DNA of 64,000 bases. Source: Actinomycetota bacterium (lineage in GTDB: Bacteria; Actinomycetota; Acidimicrobiia; IMCC26256; PALSA-610). Under the pieces are notes generated by a model, which worked only from the letters and a program-made list of their open reading frames with translations, searched no databases and was not told where the DNA came from. The translations under genes were made by a program, and so were the position numbers. Where the stretch lies: assembly GCA_005779395.1 (NCBI GenBank), contig SXJP01000039.1:22603-86602 (forward strand), read 5' to 3'. Positions 12,411 through 36,821 of the stretch are shown in pieces; position 1 is the first letter of the stretch, and each line of letters begins with the position of its first letter.

Positions 12411-12494
12411 GCCCGGATGGCGCAATTGGCTGACGCGGTGGACTCAAAATCCACTGTCCGTAAGGATGTGCGGGTTCGAATCCCGCTCCGGGCA
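12411..12494 (+). tRNA. tRNA-Leu (anticodon CAA)
   Basis: Acceptor stem GCCCGGA/TCCGGGC, anticodon stem-loop GTGGA-CTCAAAA-TCCAC, long variable arm, and T-arm GCGGGTTCGAATCCCGC. Discriminator is A and no CCA is encoded. Confidence 0.93.
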
Positions 12495-12498
12495 CTCT

Positions 12499-30710: not shown

Positions 30711-31670
30711 GTGAAGATGCTCGTTACCGGTGGGGCCGGATTCATTGGCTCGAACTTCGTCCGCTGGGTGTTCGCAAACACAGATGACGAAGTTGTTGTC
30801 TACGACGCGCTCACCTACGCAGGGAATCTCTCAACGCTGCGAGACGTCGACGACAACCCGCGCTTTTCGTTTGTACACGGCAACATCTGCGACCCAGGAC
30901 CGCTCGCTGCCTCTCTCAAGGGCTGTGACGCTGTTGTGCACTTCGCCGCAGAAAGTCACGTAGACCGCTCCATCGATGGCTCCGACGATTTCGTACACAC
31001 GAATTGTTTCGGCACCAACGTCGTTATGGACACAGCGCGTCGCGTCGGGGTGCCTCGCGCACTCCATGTCGGAACGGACGAGGTGTACGGCTCTGTCGAG
31101 GTCGGGTCATCGAAAGAATCAGACCCCCTCGAACCGCGTTCTCCTTACTCGGCGAGCAAAGCCGGTAGCGACCTCATCGCGCTCTCCTATCACCACACGC
31201 ATGGCCTCGATGTCGTCGTCACGCGTTGCACCAACAACTTCGGCGCATTCCAATATCCAGAAAAAGCGATCCCTCTATTTACAACGAACCTTCTCGACGA
31301 TAAGAAGATTCCGCTATACGGCGATGGCCTGAACGAGCGTGACTGGATCCACGTGGACGACCATTGCTCTGGCGTTTACACAGTGTTGCAACATGGAATC
31401 TCGGGCGAGATCTACAACATCGGTGCTGGCAATGAAACAACTAACAGGGTGCTCGTAGACAAACTGCTGGCACTAAATGGCTGTGGCGAAGAGATGGTCT
31501 CGTATGTCGCGGATCGCCTCGGGCATGACCGTCGTTATTCGGTTGATGTCGCAAAAGTTTCGGCCCTTGGATGGAAACGACAGCGCACCCTTGATGAGGC
31601 GTTAGAGCGCACTGTTGCGTGGTATGCCGATAATCGCTGGTGGTGGGAACCACTTCGGGCGAGGGGCTAA
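30711..31670 (+). CDS. rmlB: dTDP-glucose 4,6-dehydratase
   Basis: VTGGAGFIGSNFV Rossmann motif, YSASKAGSD catalytic motif, 319 aa. Confidence 0.95.
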   Translation: MKMLVTGGAGFIGSNFVRWVFANTDDEVVVYDALTYAGNLSTLRDVDDNPRFSFVHGNICDPGPLAASLKGCDAVVHFAAESHVDRSIDGSDDFVHTNCFGTNVVMDTARRVGVPRALHVGTDEVYGSVEVGSSKESDPLEPRSPYSASKAGSDLIALSYHHTHGLDVVVTRCTNNFGAFQYPEKAIPLFTTNLLDDKKIPLYGDGLNERDWIHVDDHCSGVYTVLQHGISGEIYNIGAGNETTNRVLVDKLLALNGCGEEMVSYVADRLGHDRRYSVDVAKVSALGWKRQRTLDEALERTVAWYADNRWWWEPLRARG

Positions 31671-31674
31671 CGCG

Positions 31675-32526
31675 ATGCGCCTCGTAGTTACTGGCGCGGG
31701 CGGGATGCTCGGCCAAGAAGTCGTCGGTATCTCGACCGGCGTCCATGAAATCCTCGCCTTTGACCATGCATCGCTCGATATCGGTGACGCCGCCGCAGTC
31801 AGTGCGACCCTCGATGCAAGCGGCGCTGAATGCATCATCAATTGCGCCGCATACACGGCTGTCGACAACTGTGAAAGCAACACTGAAACGGCGTACCGCA
31901 TCAACAGCGACGGCCCAGCAAATCTCGCTGCAGTTGCGCACCGACTAGGCGCACGACTAGTTCATGTCTCAACTGATTACGTTTTCGATGGCACGAAGCC
32001 AACTCCGTACGTCGAAACTGACAAGACCAACCCGCAATCGGTGTACGGAGCGTCGAAACTCAGCGGGGAACACGCCGTGCTCGAACTTGGTCACGCCGGC
32101 ATTGTCGCTCGGACTGCATGGGTGTTCGGTCAACACGGAGCGAACATGGTCAAGACTGTTCTACGTATCAAAGACACCGTTCCGACCTTAAGCTTCGTAG
32201 ACGACCAACGTGGCTCTCCTACGAGTGCAGCTGACCTTGCAACGATGCTCATAGCACTCGCCGATTCAAAGCACTCTGGACTATTTCATGTGACAAACGC
32301 TGGCAACGTCAGCTGGTTCGAGTTTGTCCAACAGATCTTGGCGCTCACAGGTGATGACCCTGCTCGTGTGCTTCCGATAAAGACGTCGGATCTCAGTCCC
32401 CCACGCCCGGCGCCACGCCCAGCAAACAGCGTCTTAGATAATGCCGCGTTGCGAGCCTGCGGGCTCGCTCCCTTGCGGAGCTACGAAGCCGCACTCGCGG
32501 ACGTAATCACCCAGCTAACGATCTGA
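31675..32526 (+). CDS. rmlD: dTDP-4-dehydrorhamnose reductase
   Basis: ATG 31675 gives MRLVVTGAGGMLG. YGASKLSGE catalytic motif, 283 aa. Confidence 0.93.
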   Translation: MRLVVTGAGGMLGQEVVGISTGVHEILAFDHASLDIGDAAAVSATLDASGAECIINCAAYTAVDNCESNTETAYRINSDGPANLAAVAHRLGARLVHVSTDYVFDGTKPTPYVETDKTNPQSVYGASKLSGEHAVLELGHAGIVARTAWVFGQHGANMVKTVLRIKDTVPTLSFVDDQRGSPTSAADLATMLIALADSKHSGLFHVTNAGNVSWFEFVQQILALTGDDPARVLPIKTSDLSPPRPAPRPANSVLDNAALRACGLAPLRSYEAALADVITQLTI

Positions 32527-32808
32527 TGCCGGTGCTTCTGCACGTATGCGTCGTTGCATTAATGCGCGCACGGCACCATCGAAAATCACTAGAGGGATAA
32601 GTATTCGCGTAGCTGCTGAGACCTCGTCAAGAAGCCACGACAGGTAGGCAGCCGCCGAAAACAATGCGACGAGAGCGACAGCGAGGCCAGCTTGTTGGCG
32701 TAGAGCGCTGCCTCTCTTGGGCACCGGAAACCGCTCTGGATCCCGATACAACATCAGTATCAAAAAGACTACGAGCCAGATTACAATTTGGCTTTCAACC
32801 AAGTACAT
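32515..32808 (-). CDS. small 3-TM membrane protein, partner/immunity-like paralogue I5
   Basis: ATG 32808 has GGTGGA 7 nt upstream. Three hydrophobic segments and a basic tail (MQRRIR). It shares its architecture with I1-I4. Confidence 0.55.
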   Translation of the reverse strand: MYLVESQIVIWLVVFLILMLYRDPERFPVPKRGSALRQQAGLAVALVALFSAAAYLSWLLDEVSAATRILIPLVIFDGAVRALMQRRIRAEAPASDR

Positions 32809-32830
32809 CACTTAGTCCACCTACATGTGT

Positions 32831-33136
32831 TCAGTATCCAACCAACTTTCGATTGCGCCTAGCCGACAAGAATATGTCGAGAGCAATCAGCGGAACTCCT
32901 GACACATACTCAAATCCCCAACGGATATTCACCAAATCGATGTGCAGAATCGCGACGACGCCGTAGACACCCGTCAGCACAAATGCCCCAGCAAAATATG
33001 CAACAAACAACGGGAATACGACCGGCAATTTCTCGGGTTTCGAACCGCACTTACAAAAAGGATTGGGAAACATTCGGTCGCTAGTGCGCATCACAAGTAC
33101 GAAATAGCCAAGTAGCAAGATCACAGCGCGCTGCAC
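32831..33136 (-). CDS. small 3-TM membrane protein, partner/immunity-like paralogue I4
   Basis: GTG 33136, 101 aa, hydrophobic segments and a basic tail (SARRNRK). Its RBS is the weakest of the five. Confidence 0.5.
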   Translation of the reverse strand: MQRAVILLLGYFVLVMRTSDRMFPNPFCKCGSKPEKLPVVFPLFVAYFAGAFVLTGVYGVVAILHIDLVNIRWGFEYVSGVPLIALDIFLSARRNRKLVGY

Positions 33137-33197
33137 CTGCCGTTGCTATCGAGTACTCGTTGGCGGGTCACTCCAACTTGCAGTCCTGTGCGAGGCA

Positions 33198-33464
33198 TCA
33201 TGACGCGGGCGTTCGGCGCCGACGGCGCCAGCCCGAAGCGTCCTGGAGAGCGAACAACCCAACTAGCGGAAGAGTCGAGAGTTCAACGAGATACCACTCT
33301 GCGCCCTCGAAAATATAGAAGTACCCCACAAACCACACTGCCGCCGCGACGACAATACGAATACGAGATGCAAGCGGCGGTTTCGGCCGTTTCGCATTCC
33401 AACCTTCGCCACGCCTCACGTTACTGATGATGTCGAAAACCGAACATATGAGTAGAAAAATCAT
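33198..33464 (-). CDS. small 3-TM membrane protein, partner/immunity-like paralogue I3
   Basis: ATG 33464 has GGAGG 6 nt upstream. 88 aa with three hydrophobic segments and tail SGWRRRRR. Confidence 0.6.
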   Translation of the reverse strand: MIFLLICSVFDIISNVRRGEGWNAKRPKPPLASRIRIVVAAAVWFVGYFYIFEGAEWYLVELSTLPLVGLFALQDASGWRRRRRTPAS

Positions 33465-33509
33465 CGCCTGCCTCCAATCACCTTCTGCCTCGAGGGCCTT
33501 CGTGCAGTA

Positions 33510-33686
33510 CTAGTTCTTCTTCGCAACATCTTTGAAGTCGATACCGCCATCTTTGGTTGCTCCTACACCGACTTTCATAGTGAGGCAGCCGTCTGGTTTG
33601 CGCTCGACCGCTTCTTCAAGATCGTTCGAAGTGTCGTTCATCCACGACACAGACAATTCCTCGCCATCGATGGGATGTCGGTTCAA
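33510..33686 (-). pseudogene. orphan C-terminal module (copy A3) of the effector-like family, ended by in-frame TAG
   Basis: My own translation (58 codons, so below the track cut-off) gives LNRHPIDGEELSVSWMNDTSNDLEEAVERKPDGCLTMKVGVGATKDGGIDFKDVAKKN*. This is homologous to the last ~55 aa of A1 and A2. The stop falls before the conserved YC. Confidence 0.6.
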
Positions 33687-33964
33687 TTAGGAGGCCGAGA
33701 AGCGGACCGAACAGAGTTTGCATACCGTCGTTGCCATACGTGTACGGCAAAAAAGACAACCAGACCCGGCGACATCGCAAGTTCACGCATGTACCAATCC
33801 TGGTTTGGTGGGGCGAGCTCTACCGCCAAGAGAACGGGCGCTATCCACGCTAAAGAAAGCACTCTCAGAGGTAGAGGAAGGAACGAAAAATCGAATCCAG
33901 GAAATGAACCACGTGCGAGGCGACTGATAACTGCAAAAACGATTACAACCAATATCGTGATCAT
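33683..33964 (-). CDS. small 3-TM membrane protein, partner/immunity-like paralogue I2
   Basis: ATG 33964 is preceded by TAGGAG, which overlaps the A2 stop. 93 aa with three hydrophobic segments and tail HVWQRRY. Confidence 0.6.
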   Translation of the reverse strand: MITILVVIVFAVISRLARGSFPGFDFSFLPLPLRVLSLAWIAPVLLAVELAPPNQDWYMRELAMSPGLVVFFAVHVWQRRYANSVRSASRPPN

Positions 33965-33976
33965 TGCTTGCTTCTC

Positions 33977-34435
33977 CTAGTCCTCCTGCGCGATGGCTTT
34001 GGCGCAATAAGTGTTTTTGCGGCCGACATCATTGAAATCAATTCCCCCATCAATCGCGGCACCAGGGCCAGCCTTCATCGTCAAGCAGCCGTCCGGTTTG
34101 CGACCGATTGCCTCCATCACGTTCTTCGTTATGTCCTTCTTCCACCAGTCCCATTACGTGAAACACAATGCAGCAATCGCCGCTGCGATAGCGATTGCGA
34201 GCCCCGCCGAGGCGGCCGCCGTAGCGACTCCGAGCACGATGGATATCAGCACACAAGCTCTCGAAATCACGTCCCCAATAGTCGTGGCACCCTCGAGGTG
34301 GCGATGGAAATATGCAGTGAACCTAGGGCTGAAGTAGACGGTGCCTGTTGTCCAACCGGCGTTGAAATACCAGCCGTAACCCCAGATCGTGTCACCGACT
34401 TGCAGGCCCATTGGCTTTCCGACTGTCGGCATCAC
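33977..34435 (-). pseudogene. effector-like paralogue A2, 5'-truncated and interrupted by in-frame TAA (34154-34156)
   Basis: The track ORF 34154-34435 plus my translation of 33977-34153 in the same frame reads ...AAIAALCFT*WDWWKKDITKNVMEAIGRKPDGCLTMKAGPGAAIDGGIDFNDVGRKNTYCAKAIAQED*. This is collinear with A1. Confidence 0.7.
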
Positions 34436-34538
34436 TCCGTGGCCCTTGTTCGCAATTCCTCTACCAACTCGCGTTCTGCGAGGTGCCTAATTGCCAGAAA
34501 TCGTAAAAACGCGAGCGGTACCCACATGGCGGTCCTTA

Positions 34539-34832
34539 CTAGCTCGCAGCCGCCACTGCGCGAGCGGCGGCACTCAACGATCTCAAATATCGACGACGCC
34601 AGGTGTCGATCGCTACAAAGAACAGCGCCGCGGGCACTAGCGACAGGTTCTGTGGCAACGAATCAGAATTGTCCGCGAGCCACGGCGGAATTCCGATCAT
34701 CAACAAGAAGGCGACAACGTTCGGCAATTCACTCAGGCGCCAAGAAGCGAGCGAATAGTCGACGATTGGCTTGTCACGCTCCAACCACCGTCGCAGTGCG
34801 AGAAAACCTAAAAATGCATAGACGACGTACAT
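34539..34832 (-). CDS. small 3-TM membrane protein, partner/immunity-like paralogue I1
   Basis: ATG 34832 is preceded by GAGGAGG, which overlaps the A1 stop. 97 aa with three hydrophobic segments and tail DTWRRRY. Confidence 0.65.
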   Translation of the reverse strand: MYVVYAFLGFLALRRWLERDKPIVDYSLASWRLSELPNVVAFLLMIGIPPWLADNSDSLPQNLSLVPAALFFVAIDTWRRRYLRSLSAAARAVAAAS

Positions 34833-34843
34833 ATCTTTCCTCC

Positions 34844-35413
34844 TCAGCCTTCCTGATTCTTCGCTTCGGTGCAGTACTTGTTTTTTCTTGCTACGTCGTT
34901 GAAGTCAATGCCGCCGTTGTCGGCTGTGCCATAACCGACCTTCATCGTGAGACATCCGTCTGGTTTCCGGGCAATAGCTTGCTCAATATTGTTTGAAATG
35001 TCATCAGTCCACCAGTCCCATACGAAACCGCACACTGCGCCTAAAACGCCCGCGACGATCGCGGCGGCCCCTCCCTTGCTAGCTACGAGCCCGGACAGCC
35101 ATAGGCAAACATTCATAACCTTGTTCGCGATTTCGAGTTCGTCGTCAAGACTGCGCTCTAAGTAGGCAGTGAATCGTGGGCTGAAGTAAACGGTTGCACT
35201 GATCCAACCGGCGTTGAAATACCAGCCGTAGCTCCAGATTGCGTTCCCGACTTGTAGGCCCATTGGCTGCGGTCGTGCGGGATACTCACCTTGTCCCTTA
35301 TTGCGAGCGGCGCCGCCCGCAGTTGCATCAACCGAGATCTCCTCACTCGCTACGCCCGCTACCGCTGATTCACGTGAGAGAGAGAAAGTCTGCTCGACTT
35401 TCATCTGGTGCAA
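34844..35413 (-). CDS. effector-like protein A1 (uncharacterised family: W/Y/G-rich N-domain, Gly/Ala-rich hydrophobic hairpin, WDWW, Cys-pair C-domain)
   Basis: 189-aa ORF (TTG 35413 / ATG 35404, no SD). It is the only copy without an internal stop and has paralogues at 33977-34435 and 33510-33686. I recognise no named family. Confidence 0.65.
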   Translation of the reverse strand: MHQMKVEQTFSLSRESAVAGVASEEISVDATAGGAARNKGQGEYPARPQPMGLQVGNAIWSYGWYFNAGWISATVYFSPRFTAYLERSLDDELEIANKVMNVCLWLSGLVASKGGAAAIVAGVLGAVCGFVWDWWTDDISNNIEQAIARKPDGCLTMKVGYGTADNGGIDFNDVARKNKYCTEAKNQEG

Positions 35414-35483
35414 CTAACAAACACCCGGTTGCTGCAACTGTTGCAGCAAGAGTTCGTGCAACATATTTCTTTAGACAATTCAT
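35370..35483 (-). other. 37-codon leader ORF encoding a Sec/lipoprotein-type signal peptide, out of frame (+1) with A1
   Basis: GGAG lies 8 nt upstream of ATG 35483, which opens MNCLKKYVARTLAATVAATGCLLVAPDESRADFLSLT*. The ORF overlaps the A1 ORF by 44 nt. Confidence 0.45.
35376..35385 (-). repeat. (TC)5 dinucleotide tract on the coding strand (GAGAGAGAGA on the plus strand)
   Basis: Read directly from the sequence. It lies inside the 41-nt window in which a net +2/-1 nt change would fuse the leader ORF to A1. Confidence 0.9.
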
Positions 35484-35515: not shown

Positions 35516-35558
35516 ATCTGACAAGCGGAAGTTTATCAGGCAATAGACAGATTGTCTA
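35516..35558 (-). promoter_or_regulatory. candidate promoter (TTGCCT-16 nt-TCAGAT) abutted by palindrome TAGACAgatTGTCTA
   Basis: The -35-like and -10-like hexamers lie upstream of the leader ORF on the minus strand. A perfect 6+6 palindrome at 35544-35558 sits directly next to the -35 element. The same TAGACA half-site recurs at 35472-35477 and 35485-35490. Confidence 0.25.
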
Positions 35559-35621: not shown

Positions 35622-36821
35622 TTACAGGCGGGCGACTATCGCTTCAGCGAACTCAGAGCACTTGACCTCTGTTGCGCCGTCCATCTGACGGGCAAAGTCA
35701 TAGGTAACAATCTTGTCGGCGATGGTCGCCTCGAGAGCTCTGATGATGTCGTCTGCAGCGCCTTGCCAACCGAGATGCTCAAACATCATCACGCCAGACA
35801 GAATCACTGATCCTGGATTCACTTTGTCTTGACCGGCGTACTTGGGTGCTGTGCCGTGCGTCGCCTCGAAAATCGCGTGGCCGGTCACATAGTTGATGTT
35901 GCCACCAGGGGCGATGCCGATACCACCAACTTGGGCTGCGAGCGCATCTGACAGGTAGTCGCCATTCAGGTTCGTTGTGGCGATCACTTCGAACTCGGTT
36001 GGGCGCGTAAGAACTTGCTGCAATGTGATGTCGGCGATGCTGTCCTTCACCAAGATCTTGTCGCCTCGTTCACCGTTGCAGTCGTCCCAACCAACAGCAA
36101 CATCGGAGAACTCTTCGCGGACGAGCTCATAGCCCCACTTGGCGAATGCGCCTTCTGTGAACTTCTGGATGTTGCCCTTGTGCACGATCGTGACGCTCTT
36201 GCGGTTATTCGCAACGGCATACTCGATCGCTGCGCGGATAAGGCGCTTCGAGCCAGTAACCGATACTGGTTTGATGCCGATACCGCTATCGGTACGAATA
36301 TCCCAGCCGAAATCGCTCTTCAATAGAGCGATGAGCTTGGCTGCCTCTGGAGTGCCCTGCTCTACCTCGAGGCCAGCGTAAATGTCTTCTGTGTTCTCAC
36401 GAAAGATCACCATGTCGACAAGGTCCGGGCGCTTTACCGGCGAAGGCACACCTGTAAACCAGCGCACTGGTCGCAGGCAAACGTACAGGTCTAAAATCTG
36501 ACGCAAAGCAACATTGAGGCTGCGGATACCGCCACCTATCGGAGTTGTAAGCGGGCCTTTGATGCCGATCAGGTACTCGCGAAACGCCGCGACAGTTTTA
36601 TCGGGAAGCCACGAACCTGTGGCGTCAAATGCCTTCTGACCGGCTAGAACTTCTTTCCAAGCGATCGATTTGCCGTGCTTCTTAGCTGCCGCATCGAGCA
36701 CAAGTTTCGCTGCTGGCCAGATGTCGACACCTGTACCGTCGCCTTCGACGAATGGAATAATGGGCTCGTCCGGAACCCACAACTTGCCGTCGGCTCCCAT
36801 CGTGATCTTTTCAGCGGTCAT
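35622..36821 (-). CDS. icd: isocitrate dehydrogenase (NADP-dependent, homodimeric type)
   Basis: 399 aa with IDH/IPMDH blocks [19 protein letters not shown] and [23 protein letters not shown]. Confidence 0.95.

Follow-up and report, generated by a model that had tools for sequence, protein, structure and literature searches.

A minus-strand gene island between icd and rmlD, in a 64,000-nt stretch of contig SXJP01000039.1 of an Actinomycetota bacterium (hereafter the window), is read here as an array of toxin-immunity cassettes, a reading that we favor while giving it somewhat less than an even chance. The island comprises one full-length gene of a protein family termed A, two decayed A copies, and five intact small genes of a second family, termed I. 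In the proposed scheme A would be an exported, membrane-inserting toxin and I its intramembrane immunity protein, with the toxin now off at a TC dinucleotide tract; toxicity, immunity and reversibility of the switch are what we infer. An initial annotation of the window had likened the locus to bacteriocin/immunity or polymorphic-toxin loci. The pairing of the genes, the leader, the uneven decay of the two families and the signs of insertion speak for that likeness, but no toxin homology was found and the layout of a polymorphic-toxin locus in the strict sense is not matched. The open reading frames (ORFs) of that annotation, all on the minus strand, and the conserved blocks quoted from them proved correct on inspection of the sequence (coordinates in Table 1).

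The mature A protein is about 165-190 aa long (~17-18 kDa) and has four parts: an acidic linker, probably disordered; an aromatic block, which in A1 reads PMGLQVGNAIWSYGWYFNAGWISATVYFSPRFTAY; a hydrophobic stretch of 37-40 aa (~37 aa in A1); and a C-domain lying between two Cys residues that are conserved across the A proteins (RKPDGCLTMK...KYC in A1). The hydrophobic stretch is rich in small-xxx-small motifs, with only one strict GxxxG in A1, and carries a polar turn at its center. AlphaFold, at low confidence and read for secondary structure only, draws the aromatic block as a beta-hairpin and the hydrophobic stretch as a helical hairpin. The mature frames of A1 and of P0002, a paralogue at a second locus described below, are open over ~170 codons each. 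Comparison of A1 with A2 gives 83% identity in the N-domain and 70% in the C-domain but 28% in the hairpin region; the ratio of non-synonymous to synonymous substitution rates (dN/dS) is 0.085 for the N-domains, indicating strong purifying selection, while in the C-domains synonymous sites are saturated and the proportion of non-synonymous differences (pN) is ~0.2. The parts that diverge fastest are the hydrophobic hairpin and the I proteins, the latter being about as divergent as the hairpin (I1 and I2 are 26% identical, giving a range of 26-28% for the two elements). Their co-divergence is what an intramembrane toxin-immunity interface predicts.

The five I proteins (88-101 aa) all show three hydrophobic segments, and basic residues mark both their first loop and their C-terminal tail; by the positive-inside rule they are predicted to lie N-out and C-in. 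Their description as small ORFs with three hydrophobic segments and a basic tail, each preceded by a Shine-Dalgarno (SD) sequence, was borne out, and a common topology has been kept across the set. Similarity within the family is detectable between I1 and I2 (E 3e-9), I2 and I3 (E 2e-6), and I3 and I5 (E 2e-3). Of the two further I paralogues that had been placed downstream of the A genes, I5 thus finds support, whereas I4 resembles the others only weakly (hhalign E 1.4e-3, probability 17%). Between A and I lie 11 nt for A1/I1 and 12 nt for A2/I2, with GAGGAGG and AGGAGGA preceding the respective ATG and overlapping or following the A stop codon, and I3, I4 and I5 are likewise preceded by SD-like sequences. 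The earlier statement that every A copy is followed by an I gene within ~10-15 bp holds for the first two pairs but not for A3, which ends at a premature TAG 45 nt before I3.

The two families have decayed unevenly: the ~475 I codons are free of lesions, whereas the A remnants carry two nonsense codons and two truncations. A2 is disrupted by an in-frame TAA rather than by a frameshift, and its leader and N-terminal region are absent. The similarity of A3 to A1 extends past the TAG to ~33480, and the original stop codon of A3 seems to have been lost; beyond the TAG (33465-33512) the frame stays open into the start codon of I3 and through I3, which is probably incidental. A fragment upstream of A2, I1', is what is left of a deleted module; it matches residues 1-20 of I1 at 11 of 20 positions, and Logan contig L007 has a gene called at this place. 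Because the A domains were long under purifying selection, the lesions in A2 and A3 are recent relative to the age of the paralogues. The decayed A copies and small partner genes recognized at the outset are real (two and five, respectively), and the I genes remain intact, with their own ribosome-binding sites, beside A remnants or, in the case of I4 and I5, without any A gene. Loss of the large gene with retention of the small one is typical of orphan immunity genes (PMC5358913, PMC9484751, PMC12744356).

The leader ORF of A1 (35370-35483) lies in a different frame from A1 itself, and the leader at the second locus, MMHFSKNLARVLVVTVIGATCLLVAPEPSQAQSLSLSQMRQW followed by a stop codon, is likewise out of frame with P0002. 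The two leaders are identical at 15 of 32 residues, with seven synonymous codon changes and 57% nucleotide identity, a degree of conservation that random substitutions match in 0.3% of trials (P ~0.003); conservation across both loci therefore points to a common ancestor that was a leader-plus-mature gene. In P0010, a distant homologue from a metagenome, the leader is in frame with the mature part. A Cys is conserved in all three leaders (A1, P0002, P0010). The Gram-positive lipobox pattern known as G+LPP, reportedly due to Sutcliffe and Harrington, ends in a Cys that comes behind a short hydrophobic region; the A1 leader and P0010 conform to it, P0002 does not, and cleavage by signal peptidase I (SPase I) is also possible (SRA|D, SQA|Q).

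At both loci the frame breaks exactly at a TC tract, (TC)5 at 35376-35385 in the window and (TC)6 at the homologous position, L001 10116-10127, in the second locus. The first locus needs a +1 shift, and gain of one TC unit would give a 213-aa pre-protein; the second needs a -1 shift, and loss of one unit would give a complete 196-aa pre-protein. The initial annotation had treated the leader as one in need of repair; it is indeed out of frame with A1, but the break sits at a conserved (TC)n tract, which that annotation did not note, and recurs at the second locus, which lay beyond the sequence it covered. The (TC)5 tract is the sole dinucleotide repeat of at least five units in the 64-kb window and (TC)6 the sole one in 20.6 kb of the second locus, and in 532 kb of related genomes there are seven tracts of at least five units, none of which reaches six. 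Since TCT accounts for only 12% of Ser codons, the pure TC run is not explained by the peptide sequence alone. Dinucleotide repeats as a whole are depleted in the window (seven tracts of at least four units, against ~20 expected under a first-order Markov model), so that (TC)5 stands out the more. Two features of contingency loci are thus seen here, a tract within the coding region that sets the frame and a tract rarer than the background, while the third, length polymorphism, is not. The tract is either a slipped-strand on/off switch or a hotspot at which both genes were recently inactivated, and the second reading is equally good.

The second locus (L001, ENA contig k141_1473662) places P0002 and a 75-aa membrane ORF with two hydrophobic segments between tpiA and secG, a junction that is normally tight in Actinomycetota. 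The inserted cassette is ~1 kb long, and behind it the last 41 nt of tpiA occur a second time (93% identity; L001:9825-9865 and L001:10895-10935). The copy reads TSLDPDEFARIIAFGK and the live gene GASLDPDEFARIIAFKNV, each up to its stop codon, and all three nucleotide differences are synonymous; the two tpiA ends must therefore have been functional while they diverged, each in a lineage of its own. Foreign DNA presumably brought the cassette in, or it came by site-specific integration at the tpiA 3' end. It has a near-consensus promoter, TTGACA-17-TAATAT. The window counterpart is weaker: one such site was found, at 35530..35558, where 1.7 were expected by chance, though it is suitably placed upstream of the leader ATG. 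A search around the window island for direct repeats comparable to that of tpiA, made from the 3' end of icd or of rmlD, found none; within it there are two families of DNA repeats, one of 144 nt in three copies and one of 116 nt in two. The suggestion that the segment is AT-rich and possibly acquired agrees with its G+C content being the minimum of the window, but the dip is modest (0.535 vs 0.568 +/- 0.013 in 3-kb windows). The island had also been called the only non-core segment of the window; composition, the one check bearing on this, gives it the lowest G+C. That these are chance ORFs is effectively ruled out, given the purifying selection on A, the conservation of the leader, the SD sequences and the second locus.

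Both families are extremely small. Three full-length A proteins (A1, P0002 and P0010) were found among ~15 billion proteins. A word-indexed search of 5.8 billion clusters returned only the window locus and P0002, which is 40% identical to A1 and is encoded on another contig of the same metagenome-assembled genome (MAG), and an exhaustive search of 1.84 billion representatives with a hidden Markov model (HMM) added one true distant homologue, P0010. This protein (200 aa; pairwise BLASTP E 5e-11 to A1) is encoded on a 2.9-kb Joint Genome Institute (JGI) metagenome contig, where the start of the next gene overlaps the P0010 stop codon; no further relatives of it were found. An A gene followed by a small gene is seen in three independent places, namely the window, the second locus and the P0010 contig. 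A scan of JGI metagenomes with A1 and P0002 gave no matches, and a profile search for the I family returned only I1, I2, I3 and I5 of the window, confining that family to this genome. Searches of Pfam, NCBIfam, PADLOC and PHROGs with every A and I protein of the island, and with P0002, its partner at the second locus and P0010, yielded only sub-threshold noise. The A paralogues, which had been described as unassignable to any named family, accordingly matched nothing in any family or structure library searched, and no housekeeping family emerged for A in the profile searches. The repeat proteins P0007-P0009, also returned by the exhaustive profile search, were rejected as spurious, their matches being limited to short low-complexity stretches or an 'ARKPDG' motif. 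One of them, P0009 (647 aa, with FG-GAP/VCBS-like repeats), matches the A profile through 'IARKPDGTLW...GNG', akin to ARKPDGCLTMKVGYG of A; we treat this as a short-motif coincidence, a shared beta-turn motif being possible.

Logan and ENA contigs match the window at 100% identity, and contig SXTH01000038 of the MAG GCA_005790985.1 matches it at 99.976%. Five single-nucleotide polymorphisms (SNPs) in 20.5 kb separate the window from this MAG, one of them in A1 at window position 35106, where a non-synonymous Cys-to-Ser change falls at the start of the hairpin (NVCLWL to NVSLWL). As Icd is at most 86% identical to that of other Acidimicrobiia or Acidimicrobiales MAGs, the host belongs to an uncultured, monoderm lineage of Actinomycetota. 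Eighty icd loci were compared for synteny, mostly uninformatively, since a single relative keeps icd beside rmlD. In that relative (L012), the sole Acidimicrobiia-like icd locus of this kind, a 312-aa prs-like gene fills the gap and neither A nor I is present; the locus is neither invariant nor syntenic among relatives. The gene at the island position (L012:9229-10167) was identified by eye as resembling ribose-phosphate pyrophosphokinase, and the Icd of L012 is 85% identical.

The mechanism that we propose for the array would run as follows. A protein of ~17 kDa would be exported by a Sec or lipoprotein leader, and its hydrophobic helical hairpin, framed by the aromatic beta-hairpin and the disulfide-bracketed C-domain, would insert into the membranes of related cells from outside and depolarize them. 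I would act as an immunity protein with three transmembrane (TM) segments, neutralizing the cognate hairpin within the membrane, and the surplus I genes would be orphan immunities retained against the toxins of neighbors. The TC tract would serve as a slipped-strand on/off switch, as in Helicobacter pylori oipA, and the I genes, given their own ribosome-binding sites, could still be expressed while A is off. A more specific version, to which we assign a low probability, is that the locus represents a new kind of bacteriocin in Acidimicrobiia: a Sec-exported toxin of ~17 kDa, possibly lipid-tethered, with a hypervariable hairpin as warhead, neutralized within the membrane by a cognate 3-TM protein and carried with it on a promoter-bearing cassette of ~1 kb whose target sites are housekeeping-gene 3' ends, with stochastic (TC)n slippage toggling the toxin but not the immunity.

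If a (TC)n-switched cassette is indeed at work, a clonal population would split into immune non-producers and a few producers. If the toxin-immunity reading is right, two protein families without known relatives would join the membrane-targeting toxins and the intramembrane immunity proteins. To our knowledge interbacterial antagonism in Acidimicrobiia is essentially unstudied, and this would be the first case known to us of an Actinomycetota toxin gene gated by a dinucleotide-repeat switch in the region coding for its signal peptide, with immunity left on. In addition, the pairs of hairpin and I protein would make a compact model of how specificity is encoded between transmembrane helices. 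If the reading is wrong, the island is an orphan in decay and matters little in general. In either case the system is confined to a single uncultured population, and a repeat-gated leader is unusual for Actinomycetota.

Several known systems share parts of this organization, although by every sequence-based test applied the locus belongs to none of the colicin/pyocin, Staphylococcus aureus toxin or H. pylori families. The membrane-active element of the pore-forming colicins and of pyocin S5 is a hydrophobic helical hairpin, as is proposed for A, a small membrane protein encoded by an adjacent gene confers immunity, and extra immunity genes may lie downstream; the immunity protein of pyocin S5 has three transmembrane helices, and extra or orphan immunity genes are known (PMC5358913). 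In contrast, A1, A2 and A3 have no match to Pfam Colicin at E <= 1 and no similarity in NCBIfam or the PDB, and mature A (~165 aa) lacks a receptor-binding or translocation domain. Colicins have no leader and are released by lysis, whereas A has a Sec or lipoprotein leader; the host here is a monoderm actinobacterium, and the I genes share a strand with A, to which they are translationally coupled.

The membrane-depolarizing S. aureus toxins TspA (with its immunity protein TsaI) and EsxX (with ExiCD) also come from a monoderm host and have a hydrophobic element of the glycine-zipper type. EsxX, a glycine-zipper toxin, is neutralized by the polytopic membrane proteins ExiCD, which protect from outside (PMC12744356). 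The immunity genes tsaI and esaG form strings of non-identical copies (PMC9484751), and such genes occur both as tandem paralogues and as orphans in non-producers (PMC9484751, PMC12744356), as may be the case here. However, these toxins have N-terminal domains of the LXG/WXG type and are exported through type VII secretion (T7SS), whereas A has a Sec-type leader and shares no sequence similarity with them, and the A1 hairpin, for all its small-xxx-small motifs, is not a canonical glycine zipper as in the S. aureus proteins. For the switch, the nearest parallel is H. pylori, where a CT repeat in the signal-peptide coding region of oipA turns the gene on and off by slipped-strand mispairing and tracts of 5, 6, 8, 9 and 11 units have been reported (PMC10564699). 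In oipA, sabA and babB, as at the A loci, a CT/TC tract in the signal-peptide region sets the frame, and the five and six units seen here fall within the oipA range; unlike the A genes, these encode outer-membrane adhesins of a Gram-negative pathogen, and their length polymorphism between strains is documented.

The 5'-truncated A2 and A3, each followed by an intact small gene and lying downstream of a full-length gene, together with the unpaired I4 and I5, also recall the orphan modules of contact-dependent inhibition (CDI) and Rhs loci. In polymorphic toxins, however, the C-terminal domain is variable and a large N-terminal module serves delivery, whereas in A the C-domain is conserved, the middle is variable and the signal peptide is the only delivery element, and A2 and A3 carry nonsense codons. 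Sec-dependent class II bacteriocins such as enterocin P and lactococcin 972 are smaller than 10 kDa, with a Sec signal peptide and an immunity gene immediately downstream. The A/I pairs resemble them in having a Sec signal peptide rather than a double-glycine leader and a putative immunity gene directly downstream, but mature A is ~17-18 kDa and matches neither PF09683 nor any other bacteriocin model.

Against a toxin-immunity array several observations have to be set. Similarity to a toxin, bacteriocin, immunity, defense or phage family was found neither by sequence nor by profile, and a profile search of PDB sequences gave no match at E <= 10. The AlphaFold2 models of A1 and P0010 have predicted local distance difference test (pLDDT) values of 39 and 43, from alignments of five and six sequences respectively; both are unusable as evidence of a fold. 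Neither homology nor fold ties A to a toxin or I to an immunity protein. The divergence of the hairpin may reflect weak constraint on low-complexity Ala/Gly/Val sequence rather than diversifying selection, and the hydrophobic region of P0010 is shorter. I4 and the second-locus partner are only weakly, or not significantly, similar to I1-I3 and I5. Should A be a lipoprotein, it would be tethered to the producer, a poorer fit with a diffusible bacteriocin. Tracts of five or six units are short for a contingency locus, no variation in length was seen ((TC)5 in five of five assemblies of the first locus, (TC)6 in four of four of the second), and no in-frame leader-mature version of either locus occurs among the ~15 billion proteins; on these last two grounds simple inactivation fits equally well.

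The most serious alternative, unlikely but by no means negligible, builds on that inactivation: A and I would be a lineage-specific envelope protein family without any role in antagonism, A being exported or anchored and I its membrane partner, and the island would be eroding by plain pseudogenization. Every A copy in the genome is disrupted, as this would have it, and the invariant tracts, the missing in-frame allele and the absence of toxin homology suit it equally; so does the tiny size of the families, which is what short-lived orphan genes would give. It accounts less well for the strong purifying selection under which the A domains evolved for most of their history, and for mature frames in A1 and P0002 that are still fully open. 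If I works only with A, the keeping of I genes and their SD sequences where A is dead or absent is unexpected. The insertion of the A-I unit as a self-contained cassette with its own promoter also speaks against this alternative.

Another alternative, which seems to us improbable, makes A a phase-variable, lipid-anchored surface protein such as an adhesin, or a receptor or decoy for phages; slippage at (TC)n would toggle its exposure, as in H. pylori outer-membrane protein genes, and the I proteins would be membrane partners or assembly factors. The A1 leader and P0010 fit the lipoprotein pattern, all three leaders have the Cys, a long acidic linker follows the leader, and the position of the TC tract in the signal-peptide region is that of oipA (PMC10564699). 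On the other hand the P0002 leader does not fit the lipobox, no tract-length variation is seen, and such a protein explains neither the surplus of intact I genes without A genes nor why hairpin and I proteins diverge so fast.

Still less credible is a remnant of a phage or lysis module, in which I would be holin-like or act in superinfection exclusion and A would be a secreted lysis or exclusion factor. Class I holins are, in general terms, small proteins with two or three TM segments and a charged, basic C-terminal tail. The I proteins agree with this in size, in having three hydrophobic segments and in their basic tail, and their topology is compatible; the G+C content of the region, below that of its surroundings, might also suit phage origin. 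But no A or I protein matches PHROGs or PADLOC, tblastn with A1 found nothing in 50,697 phage or 72,556 plasmid records, A has no endolysin domain, neither an endolysin nor an integrase nor any further gene of phage type lies within the island or next to it, and five tandem holin paralogues would be unprecedented. Recoding, by which a ribosome or RNA polymerase would slip two nucleotides on (CU)n (-2 at the first locus, +2 at the second) to give some full-length pre-protein from a template that is off, is highly improbable. In its favor, a slip of two restores identical codon pairing, a period of two could satisfy both needed shifts (in the window +1, equal to -2, and at the second locus -1, equal to +2), and both paralogues have kept the tract in their DNA. 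Against it, the slips at the two loci would have to go opposite ways, neither a stimulatory structure nor a slippery heptamer is evident, and two-nucleotide frameshifting is very rare in bacteria.

Table 1. Features of the icd-rmlD island and its flanks (window coordinates).
Feature	Position	Strand	Remarks
icd	35622-36821		flank; precomputed Pfam hits
Promoter-like site TAGACA-17 nt-TAAACT (TG-extended)	35530..35558	-	in the 138-nt icd-leader spacer; consensus match
Leader ORF, 37 codons plus TGA (MNCLKKYVARTLAATVAATGCLLVAPDESRADFLSLT)	35370..35483	-	Sec-type signal peptide; GGAG 5' of start
(TC)5 tract (GA on + strand)	35376..35385	-	signal peptide/mature protein junction
A1 mature-protein frame, 189 aa	34844..35413	-	
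I1, 97 aa	34539..34832	-	SD GAGGAGG overlaps A1 stop codon
I1' fragment, 31-codon ORF (MWVPLAFLRFLAIRHLAERELV...)	34432..34527	-	resembles I1 N-terminus; stop overlaps A2 start
A2, decayed A paralogue	33977..34435	-	lacks leader and linker; in-frame TAA 34154-34156
I2, 93 aa	33683..33964	-	intact; SD AGGAGGA
A3, C-domain-only remnant, 58 aa	33510..33686	-	premature TAG 33510-33512
I3, 88 aa	33198..33464	-	intact; SD TGGAGG
I4, 97-101 aa	32831..33136	-	I-type architecture; no A remnant upstream
I5, 97-98 aa	32515..32811	-	SD AGGTGGA; 3' end overlaps rmlD 3' end by 12 nt
rmlD	31615-32526		other flank, convergent with I5; precomputed Pfam hits

Rfam detected no RNA family in or near the island, and the only RNA gene of the window by Rfam or ARAGORN is a tRNA-Leu(CAA) at 12411-12495, which is not associated with it. 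About 7 kb downstream of the second-locus cassette a gene for a large serine recombinase (L001:17735-19390) lies beside a DUF6338 gene, with no established link to the cassette.

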